Shown one piece after another: positions 27,784 to 35,766 of a stretch of 64,000 bases of DNA. Position 1 is the stretch's first letter. Each line of letters opens with the position of its first letter. Below the pieces are notes generated by a model. It made no database searches. It was not told the DNA's origin and saw only the letters and a list, made by a program, of their open reading frames with translations. The stretch is from Escherichia coli (GTDB lineage Bacteria > Pseudomonadota > Gammaproteobacteria > Enterobacterales > Enterobacteriaceae): NCBI RefSeq assembly GCF_013122565.1, contig NZ_CP053258.1. One strand, written 5' to 3'. The position numbers were made by a program, and so were the translations under genes.

Positions 27784-30700
27784 TCAGAGGTTTTTATAAC
27801 ATGTCGCATAAGCAAACCCAAGCTTTTCAAATACGCTTTGATCACCTGTTGCCAGGGAAACTACGTATTGTTCGTTTGAGTTTGCGGGACTCGATGACCA
27901 ATACATATTTGATTGAAAACCAGCTTCAGTCGTGTAATGCCCCATATCTCCCCATTCACTGTACAGTGACCCGATGCCTCGGGAACGACTATGGTTTAAA
28001 TGGTCTCCAAGGGGAAGTGTGTAGCCATTGCTACTGCAAAAATTTTCAGCAAGGCTGTATATCATGAAAGCATCGCCGGCGTTCACCCACCAACTCTTCA
28101 CTCGGATTTCGTATATATAGCTAGGGCCGCCTGTTTTTGGCGTCGCCGTAATCCTCTCCCATTTGCTGCCGACATTTTTAAATGTCACTTTACCGGTAGC
28201 ATCAACATCGACCCAGGAGCCAGAGCTTGAAAACTCATAATCAGCCGCCGTTTTTCCTGGGGCAAAGTTGTCATTATTCAACTGATAATACGCCCCAGTG
28301 AACCCCTGCGAAGGGAATGTAGTTGTCGGTAGGTTAGCACCATTGACTAACACTGTACCGCTCATTATTTTGTCTTCTGCGCGAGTGAATTGTATTGTGG
28401 TACTCAGACCCGCTTGATGAACACCATTCAATACAGGGATCAGCGTTGCGATACCCTCTCCGCCTCCTGTAACAGTGGCTTTGTACTCGCCTGAGAAATT
28501 TTTACTGTAGTCAATTGCACTAACTTGCACATAGGGCACGTTGGTACCTGACTGCACAAATTCCAGCCCTTCAGAAATTTTGATCGGATTGCCTGATATA
28601 TCGTGCAGAACAAGATGTAGCTCAGCACTATCGGTAAAGTCTCCTTTCAATGATGACCGATTGTTCTTAAGGACGGACTGCGAGGCGTCTGCCGGGCCTG
28701 CCACCAGCGTTATATCTACTGTTTGCATTCCACCAGCGGTCGTGACTGCGCTTACCGTGACGCTACCTGTCATCGCTCCTTTCACGCTTGTTGTCGCGAT
28801 TCCGTTTTGATCGGTCACCGCTGTTAATGACGTTAATGTGGCAGAGCCGCTTTTTAAGGCGAAGTACACAGTGAGACCTTCGATCAGGTTACCACTGCCA
28901 TCCTCAACCGTTGCCTTTAAGGTACTTAAATCACTGTTGGTGGCGGCGATAGTCGATGGATCAGCGATAAAGCTAGCAACATGTGCGGTGCTTGAGTTGC
29001 CAGTGACTTTCACGGTTGTCTGTGTCTGTATTGTTACACCGTTATGGAACGATGCAGTCACCGTATATGTACCGACTTTATTGCTGGTCAGAACGACTGG
29101 TGCTTGACCTGAAGAGTTAGTTCTCACTTTTCCGCCACTTAACGTTGCCCCTTCTGGCGTTACGCTAAAGTTGATGACCTGACCCTCCACTGGAGTGCCA
29201 TTTGCAGAAGTTAGCGTTGCCGTCAGAGTTGCACCTGTTGGGGAATTGACACCGATAAGCGGGCTGGACGCCGAGAGTGTCAGTTTTTCATCAATAGCCT
29301 CCAGTTGTTTCTCAAGTGAAGCTCCATTCGCCAGTGATGCTTTCACCATATACGAACCGTTTCTTTCGGGCGTCATAGTGACCTCGGCTATACCCTGCGT
29401 ATTAGTAGACACCGTATTCTGGCTGATGATCATTTGCGAGGATGGTTCCGCACTGAATGTGACGGGTTGATGCGTAACCGGGTTGCCAAACTGGTCGTTG
29501 ACGTGAGCTTTAACTGCTACGTCTTGTGCGACCATTACCTGACCTTCAGGTATATCCAGACTGGTAATCGTCGCAGAATTAACATCTGCACTGGCATTCA
29601 GTAATCGTGAGATGACTTCAGTAGGTTTATCTGCTAAAGAGGCTGAAACTGTTTTCAGTCCGACCTCGGTGCTTGTCACAAGAATTTCAGCGAAACCCTG
29701 ATCATCCGTTTCAACGCTGGTGCTGCTTAGCGTGACGGAGGTTCCGCGGAAATTAACTTTTATGCCTTTTACCGGGTTGCCGTTAGCGTCAGTGACGCTT
29801 GCCGTCATGGTTGCGCCCTCGGTCGTGCTGACGACGAATGAATATACAGAGGTTAAGGAAGCCAGTTTTGCGGTACCTGCATCGGCAATCAACGTCACCT
29901 GTTTCGTATCACTGACACCATAATTGTTCACGCTAACTGTCACGGGATAGGTGCCGGATTTTGTACCGCTCAGTGTAACTTCAGCCTTGCCGTTGATATC
30001 AGTAATGGCGGAACCGCCTTGTCCGAGAGTGAAGCTTGCACTCACGTCTGCCGGTAGCGTGAATGTCACCACCTCATTGGCTAACGGGTTGCCGTTTCCA
30101 TCAGTCACCGTTGCCTGCAGCCTGGTCATCCCGACGTTATTAGCGATAAAGTTGTCCTCGGTAACGTTAAGATTAACCTGCGCTGTGAGCGTATCCGCAA
30201 TAAAATTCACCACCAACTGCTCACTCTTACCGCCAGCCATCGATGCTGTAACAGTATGAGCGCCTGCTTTTGTACCTTTCAGCATGACTTTCGCTTTGCC
30301 TTCAGTATCAGTAACCGCTTTACCGCCATCGCCCAGTGTGAAGTTCGCCCTCACATCTTCCGGCAGAGTAAATGTTACCTCAGTGTTGGCTATCGCATTG
30401 CCTTCTGTATCAGCGACTGTTGCTGTTAGTGTCGTGAGATCGTTATTGTCGGCAATCACCGGATCCTTCGAGGCTGCCAGCGTGATTTCGGCATTCGCGA
30501 CGTTCGGCACATAGGTCACTGTGTGTTGCATCGAATCGCCATTGTCGAGGGTTGCCGTCACTTGATAAACCCCGGCTTTTGTAGCGGTCATGCTTGCGTA
30601 TAAATAGCCGTCGTGGTTGGTAGTATTTATACCGTTATTACTGAGGGTCACGCCTTCACTCGGCGAAACGCTGAGGGTTACCTGATGCAGGGGTACACCA

Positions 30701-35766: not shown

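Follow-up and report, generated by a model that had tools for sequence, protein, structure and literature searches.

An intact long yeeJ allele in Escherichia coli and the very probable deletion origin of the shorter K-12 form

The yeeJ locus and its gene model

We analyzed a 64,000-nucleotide (nt) stretch of Escherichia coli DNA (the window; contig NZ_CP053258.1 of RefSeq assembly GCF_013122565.1), in which the original prediction, made from the sequence before any database search, had placed an enlarged yeeJ, the gene for an inverse-autotransporter adhesin. The genes lie in the order mtfA - asnT - yeeJ - yeeL - shiA, fully syntenic with K-12, and a blastn comparison showed the window to be colinear with K-12 positions 2,016,766 to 2,062,386 across yeeJ, at about 97% identity. 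The encoded protein shares 95.4% amino acid (aa) identity with that of K-12 MG1655 (b1978) over 2358 aligned residues. Given this synteny and the high identity to b1978, the gene is yeeJ; together with the domain matches described below, these results bear out the predicted gene and family. As in K-12, no inserted island was found at the asnT-yeeJ junction.

On the minus strand, the longest reading of the yeeJ open reading frame (ORF) begins at a TTG and spans 27784..35841 (2685 codons/aa), while the reading from the ATG at 35766 (MATKKRSGEE...) comprises 7983 nt, that is, 2660 codons and a TGA stop (27784-27786), with no internal stops. Four in-frame candidate starts were seen between 35709 and 35841, namely TTG 35841, ATG 35793, ATG 35766 and ATG 35709. 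The start at ATG 35793, which some public annotations use, gives 2669 aa; ATG 35709, the counterpart of the current K-12 RefSeq start (MGIKLRR), would give 2641 aa here. Public annotations of yeeJ use three start choices (2669, 2660 and 2641 aa, the last being the K-12 equivalent), so the choice of start codon explains some of the length variation that databases seem to show. A protein identical to the 2660-aa product is already present in NCBI (WP_171459245.1 / QJU23829.1), deposited from a 4.82-Mb E. coli contig as "Ig-like domain-containing protein"; annotation pipelines name the long form inconsistently, either in this way or as "adhesin-like protein YeeJ".

Domain architecture of YeeJ

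YeeJ has the organization of an inverse autotransporter (type Ve), with a PF11924 barrel N-terminal to the passenger and a C-terminal passenger of Big_1 / invasin D3 repeats. The barrel (IAT_beta) was matched by Pfam at aa 144-419 with 376.5 bits against a cut-off of 22.3, and phmmer searches against PDB returned the barrels of invasin (4E1T, E 4e-80) and intimin (4E1S, E 1.5e-66). In the immunoglobulin (Ig)-like stalk, Big_1 reached 839 bits in 17 stretches and Invasin_D3 477 bits. Using a hidden Markov model (HMM) that we built from the YeeJ repeats themselves, we counted 19 tandem Ig-like envelopes (aa 531-2460), as opposed to 16 in K-12. A signal-peptide-like segment at aa 20-45 (...LAFPMAAAA/Q), judged by eye and with a putative cleavage site, precedes the LysM region, and at the C-terminus aa 2162-2629 align to residues 9-464 of the 492 in invasin 1CWV (phmmer, E 1.4e-18). 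The coordinates of all features are given in Table 1.

Export by the type Ve route involves Sec-dependent export, anchoring of LysM to peptidoglycan, insertion of the barrel, and hairpin export of the C-terminal passenger. The long YeeJ would present, in order, a signal sequence, a periplasmic LysM, an outer-membrane barrel, a rod of 19 Ig domains, and an invasin-D4-like plus lectin-like tip, and on this architecture it would be expected to follow the same route. Over its first 100 aa, the protein shares 99% identity with K-12 YeeJ, whose LysM domain was shown experimentally to bind peptidoglycan (PMC5595812).

The K-12 protein has the same LysM region, barrel, Ig stalk, cap and flanking genes; it differs in the absence of 906 bp and in having 16 Ig domains instead of 19. 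Invasin of Yersinia and intimin of enteropathogenic and enterohaemorrhagic E. coli, the prototypes of type Ve, share the barrel family and the Big_1 / Invasin_D3 rod, and their D4 plus lectin-like tip can be aligned to that of YeeJ (1CWV), but the stalk of YeeJ is far longer, with at least 19 Ig domains compared with 4 in the 1CWV invasin rod. Two other identities were considered and rejected, as NCBIfam intimin_all scored 466.6 bits (cut-off 1400) and Ve_IatC_Nterm 1166 bits (cut-off 2400). IatC of E. coli SMS-3-5 (Goh et al. 2019, PMC6714894) is nevertheless the best NCBIfam match, over the N-terminal 836 aa, and this large adhesin also comprises LysM, a barrel, Big1 repeats and a lectin cap; it occupies a different chromosomal locus and, with the score below cut-off, represents a paralogue family relative to YeeJ.

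Table 1. Features of yeeJ and its upstream tRNA gene in the window (coordinates are window positions)
Feature	Coordinates	Strand	Basis or remark
yeeJ coding sequence, long (very probably UMN026-type) allele	27784..35766	-	2660 codons + TGA
Putative periplasmic LysM region (~aa 69-117)	35416..35562	-	sub-threshold Pfam match + K-12 identity
Inverse-autotransporter beta-barrel (aa 144-419)	34510..35337	-	Pfam + phmmer
Stalk of 19 Ig-like (Big_1 / Invasin_D3-type) domains (aa 531-2460)	28387..34176	-	Pfam + own HMM
b0, diverged b-type Ig domain (aa 934-1037), N-terminal flank of array	32656..32967	-	domain comparison
Repeat unit 1: a1 (aa 1038-1136) + b1 (aa 1137-1240)	32047..32655	-	self-comparison
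Repeat unit 2: a2 (aa 1241-1339) + b2 (aa 1340-1443)	31438..32046	-	self-comparison
a3, diverged a-type Ig domain (aa 1444-1543), C-terminal flank of array	31138..31437	-	domain comparison
906-bp block without K-12 counterpart, mid-a1 to mid-b2 = three Ig domains	31652/31669 to 32557/32574	-	breakpoint scan
C-terminal cap: Invasin_D4-like, then C-type-lectin-like domain (aa 2472-2660)	27787..28353	-	weak Pfam + phmmer
tRNA-Asn (asnT by synteny)	36080..36155	-	directly upstream of yeeJ, as in K-12

Anatomy of the repeat array

Within the stalk lies an array of alternating Ig domains of two distinct subtypes, a (99-100 aa) and b (104 aa), in the order b0-a1-b1-a2-b2-a3. Tandem Repeats Finder reported no repeat in yeeJ, the period of 609 nt being above its 500-nt limit, and a blastp self-search of the protein gave no off-diagonal matches; the repeat was instead recovered by repeat finding and blastn self-comparison of the DNA. 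The two units (aa 1038-1240 and 1241-1443) agree at 196 of 203 residues and are 95.2% identical in DNA at the 609-nt period, which confirms the 203-aa duplication that had been proposed for this gene.

Sequence divergence between the units allowed us to consider their age. In this allele, they differ at 29 of 609 positions, with nonsynonymous divergence (dN) of 0.016 and synonymous divergence (dS) of 0.162, while the units of O157:H7 are 88.8% identical with a dS of 0.35, and dN/dS across both alleles is approximately 0.1-0.17. Because dS amounts to 0.16 here and 0.35 in O157 and dN/dS is low, the duplication is old, and the two units are old copies that are both under purifying selection. Among the a domains, a1 (32359-32655) and a2 (31750-32046) are 98% identical in DNA here, compared with 86% in O157, and a1 is nearer to O157 a2 (93.9%) than to O157 a1 (87.9%). 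This points to gene conversion of a1 by a2-like sequence within the array in this lineage.

Tandem 609-bp repeats are prone to error in short-read assemblies, and the second unit could in principle have been produced by misassembly of a repetitive gene. We consider this explanation practically negligible, as the units are distinguishable by the differences counted above, the reading frame is intact, the identical protein was deposited from a 4.8-Mb contig, and the same length recurs in hundreds of independent complete genomes.

A single 906-bp block accounts for the length difference from K-12

From the homologous MATKKR start, yeeJ of K-12 MG1655 encodes 2358 aa, so that the gap to the 2660 aa found here is exactly 302 aa (906 nt), in agreement with the roughly 300 residues by which the original prediction had set this protein apart from K-12. 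The current K-12 RefSeq model begins 19 codons later (MGIKLRR) and has 2339 aa; with like starts, the difference is still 302 aa. A length of 2340 aa has been argued for the K-12 protein (PMC5595812). The domain annotation and K-12 alignment by which this observation was to be checked gave different lengths and different repeat counts (19 and 16) and thus left it standing, with the 203-aa duplication covering only part of the 302-aa excess.

Alignment of the two proteins with MAFFT placed gaps of 99 and 203 aa, 302 in total, both inside the one repeat array; the remainder of the gene does not differ in length. At the DNA level, nt 1-3209 of the gene match K-12 nt 1-3209 at 98.1%, and nt 4093-7983 match K-12 nt 3187-7077 at 94.6%. 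When all positions were scanned for a single 906-nt gap, a unique mismatch minimum was obtained, with the breakpoint in an 18-nt window at gene nt 3192-3209. This breakpoint is the motif ACAGTGAAAGATCC (TATVKDP), which is common to the domains on either side, and because the motif is shared, each end of the block is ambiguous by 18 nt. The blastn comparison of the window with K-12 joins at 31674 and 32558, in agreement with the block, which is composed of a- and b-type domain sequence. Since the single 906-nt gap minimizes DNA mismatches, we rejected the 99 + 203 split as a description of the event, keeping it as a possible two-step history; the split also illustrates that the array can mislead alignments as well as short-read assemblies. 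The additional repeat-array expansion or divergence that had been invoked for the remainder of the excess was therefore not found, all 302 aa being contained in one array and one block with a single breakpoint.

The known long variant, its frequency and other array states

A previous study described two yeeJ variants, MG1655-type and UMN026-type, the latter with a 906-bp fragment corresponding to three extra Big domains (Martinez-Gil et al. 2017, Sci Rep 7:11326, PMC5595812). The allele in the window shows the same properties: the 906-bp fragment is absent from MG1655 yet consists of sequence that is repeated there, the amplicon is larger, and three Big domains are added. In silico polymerase chain reaction with primers 4225/4226, which lie in b0 and a3, yielded 1599 bp for the window, 1599 bp for O157:H7, 990 bp for strain ET5 and 693 bp for K-12. 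The UMN026-type variant occupies the same locus (asnT-yeeJ-yeeL-shiA) and has the same fragment between the primers, with no architectural difference. In O157:H7 strain OK1, the annotated YeeJ likewise has 2660 aa and shares this architecture. In the published survey, the long form was present in 11/42 genomes, in 8/26 yeeJ-positive ECOR strains and in 17/44 of a second collection, and phylogroup E, the group of O157:H7, held 6 of the 11 long-variant strains (PMC5595812).

We then obtained population counts from 5426 complete E. coli genomes. Some yeeJ match was present in 5198 of them, and in 2700 it extended over at least 80% of the gene. The array region was found in 2913 complete genomes. 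Of these, 1253 are of the long type, with 80% or more of a 1701-nt array query covered, and nearly all other array-bearing genomes show a 795-nt short span. A 601-nt K-12 junction query intended for short alleles was confounded, with pieces of long alleles joined to 98% coverage, leaving only its identity bands roughly informative; allele counts were therefore taken from the 1701-nt query. The long yeeJ allele is thus already known and ordinary. As the 2660-aa form is a common natural allele, length differences from K-12 should not be taken as strain-specific expansions. The particular allele in the window is at most 98.2% identical in DNA to any allele in the complete-genome set, and its a1 is homogenized towards a2. 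About half of the complete genomes keep only around 30% of yeeJ, in the form of fragments that are annotated separately as barrel and Ig-like, and the fragment count is consistent with the published figure of only about 40% of strains with intact yeeJ.

The array also occurs in other states. ET5 (NZ_CP101014.1, 1139-8512) encodes a 2457-aa YeeJ with one a+b unit, in which the a domain is 100% identical to a1 of the window and the b domain equals b1 of the window up to about nt 267 and b2 thereafter; this mosaic is the footprint of a 609-bp deletion by unequal crossover. Many database clusters contain a three-unit YeeJ (2863-2880 aa), in which the a and the b domain are each present three times. 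The 609-bp unit is hence copy-number polymorphic in E. coli, with at least four states (chimera, one, two and three units) that correspond to lengths of 2358, 2457, 2660 and about 2863 aa, the window allele being mid-range. Our literature search for yeeJ length variants retrieved nothing beyond Martinez-Gil 2017, and neither the four-state polymorphism nor a deletion origin of the K-12 form was found in it.

Some yeeJ alleles have a strongly divergent C-terminus, which takes in approximately the last four Ig domains together with the lectin-like tip and ends in ...ACYKNI or ...ACYKQI; in these alleles, DNA matches end at query position 7673. On these sequences, the adhesin tip appears to be allelic (mosaic), as is the stalk length.

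Origin of the K-12 form

In K-12, the array consists of b0, one 104-aa domain (aa 1038-1141; the sixth Ig domain found by our HMM) and a3. The first 33 residues of this single domain are identical to a1 (33/33), compared with 24/33 for a3 and 8-14/33 for the b types, whereas its last 71 residues agree with b1 at 69/71 and with b2 at 68/71, compared with 22-23 of 65-66 for the a types. The domain is thus an a/b chimera joined exactly at the shared motif. Because it is a chimera, the K-12 form would be the derived and shortened one and the long form the intact arrangement; an insertion could not plausibly have turned a chimera into intact a and b domains, which favors deletion as the direction. 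We conclude that, very probably, the window carries an intact long (UMN026-type) yeeJ allele and the K-12 allele is a deletion derivative. The term "enlarged" would accordingly have the direction reversed, given the a/b fusion left by deletion in K-12 and the wide occurrence of the long form.

In the mechanism that we propose, recombination at the short common motif (LTATVKDP / ACAGTGAAAGATCC) would have fused the initial 33 codons of a1 to the 71 codons at the end of a b domain, and the deletion would have taken out 906 bp in frame, leaving one chimeric yet complete Ig domain in K-12. Whole 609-bp units would in addition be gained and lost by unequal homologous recombination, giving rise to one-, two- and three-unit alleles. 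Other bacterial surface adhesins, for example Bap/Esp-type proteins and the streptococcal alpha C protein, similarly gain and lose tandem domain repeats in frame by homologous recombination, which alters the length of the stalk but leaves the tip as it is. The yeeJ array differs from these systems in that its 609-bp unit spans two domains and is present in only 1-3 copies, and in that its commonest short allele results from recombination between an a and a b domain, which are not equivalent, at 18 nt of microhomology.

The opposite direction, in which a recent 203-aa duplication and further expansion added about 300 residues in this strain to a K-12-like ancestor of 2358 aa, would account for a gene longer than that of K-12 with a near-identical 203-aa tandem pair, and the 98% DNA identity of a1 and a2 does look recent. 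We nevertheless regard it as highly improbable. The 2660-aa architecture is shared by O157:H7 and by over 1000 complete genomes, the units differ at a dS of 0.16-0.35, and the K-12 chimera cannot be split into two complete domains by a simple insertion; the identity of a1 and a2 is better explained by gene conversion, since a1 is nearer to a2 of O157.

A more serious, although still rather unlikely, alternative to the single deletion is that the K-12 form arose in two steps, with loss of a 609-bp unit to give a 2457-aa, ET5-like form and then a separate 297-bp deletion that fused a and b. One-unit alleles do exist, the MAFFT gaps measure 99 and 203 aa, and the b-part of the K-12 domain resembles a b1/b2 mosaic, agreeing with b1 at some sites in the middle and with b2 at the 3' end. 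On the other hand, the single 906-bp gap requires the fewest mismatches, one-unit alleles are rare (about 1 of 60 sampled rows of the array search), and ET5 itself, with its a domain 100% identical to that of the window, is a recent derivative of a window-like allele and hence not an ancestor of the K-12 lineage.

Several points weigh against the reading of an intact long allele and a K-12 deletion derivative, or limit how far it extends. The direction of the event was derived from domain-chimera logic rather than from a rooted phylogeny or an outgroup, and the one-step (906 bp) and two-step (609 + 297 bp) routes lead to an indistinguishable K-12 form, in which the b-part is b2-like at the 3' end and mixed in the middle. 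Identity with the UMN026 variant was judged from the 906-bp size, the position and the primer sites, with the O157 allele as a proxy. Within the protein, the Pfam match to LysM is partial and sub-threshold (aa 78-99, E 0.015, 15.7 bits against a cut-off of 20.9), and in the C-terminal cap both Invasin_D4 (23.7 bits) and Intimin_C (23 bits) remain under the 27-bit cut-off. Finally, the only expected consequence of the three extra domains is a longer stalk, by a general-knowledge estimate of about 11 nm of added reach, each Ig domain of the invasin rod measuring about 3.6 nm.

Possible significance of stalk length

K-12 is not a neutral reference for yeeJ, being very probably a deletion derivative with a fused Ig domain. 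Published aggregation and biofilm assays detected no difference between the long and short forms (PMC5595812); as K-12 backgrounds were used, these assays would miss any effect for which shielding by O-antigen or capsule is required. One could speculate, and we attach little credence to the idea, that the copy number of the unit is a selected "stalk-length dial" that tunes the projection of the lectin-like tip beyond O-antigen or capsule. If so, the short chimera would be favored in some lineages and long alleles in others, for example pathogens, and the published lack of phenotype would be due to testing in rough K-12. A link between long alleles and pathogens was hinted at in the earlier study (PMC5595812).

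Other features of the window

Next to yeeJ, yeeL (26470-27522, plus strand) is an intact 350-aa ORF, annotated as glycosyltransferase family 9 in O157 and ET5; its K-12 counterpart is a pseudogene, interrupted by an in-frame stop where codon 234 would correspond. Elsewhere in the window, a block of approximately 9.5 kb (7940-17415) without K-12 counterpart lies directly 3' of a second tRNA-Asn (17466-17541, asnV by synteny). ORFs in this block match two EIIC-GAT permeases of the phosphotransferase system (PTS), EIIA_2, an RpiB/LacAB isomerase and a ribulose-phosphate 3-epimerase, as well as a short-chain dehydrogenase/reductase (SDR), a SIS-domain protein, and DeoR- and SorC-type regulators, and the block resembles an islet for sugar PTS uptake and catabolism located at a tRNA-Asn site. 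Positions 1-4295 have no match to the K-12 region, where K-12 has the cryptic prophage CP4-44 (flu/Ag43) beyond cobU. The ORF at 2630-3544 combines a PocR sensory domain with an AraC-type helix-turn-helix, which suggests a pocR-like regulator adjoining the cob genes.

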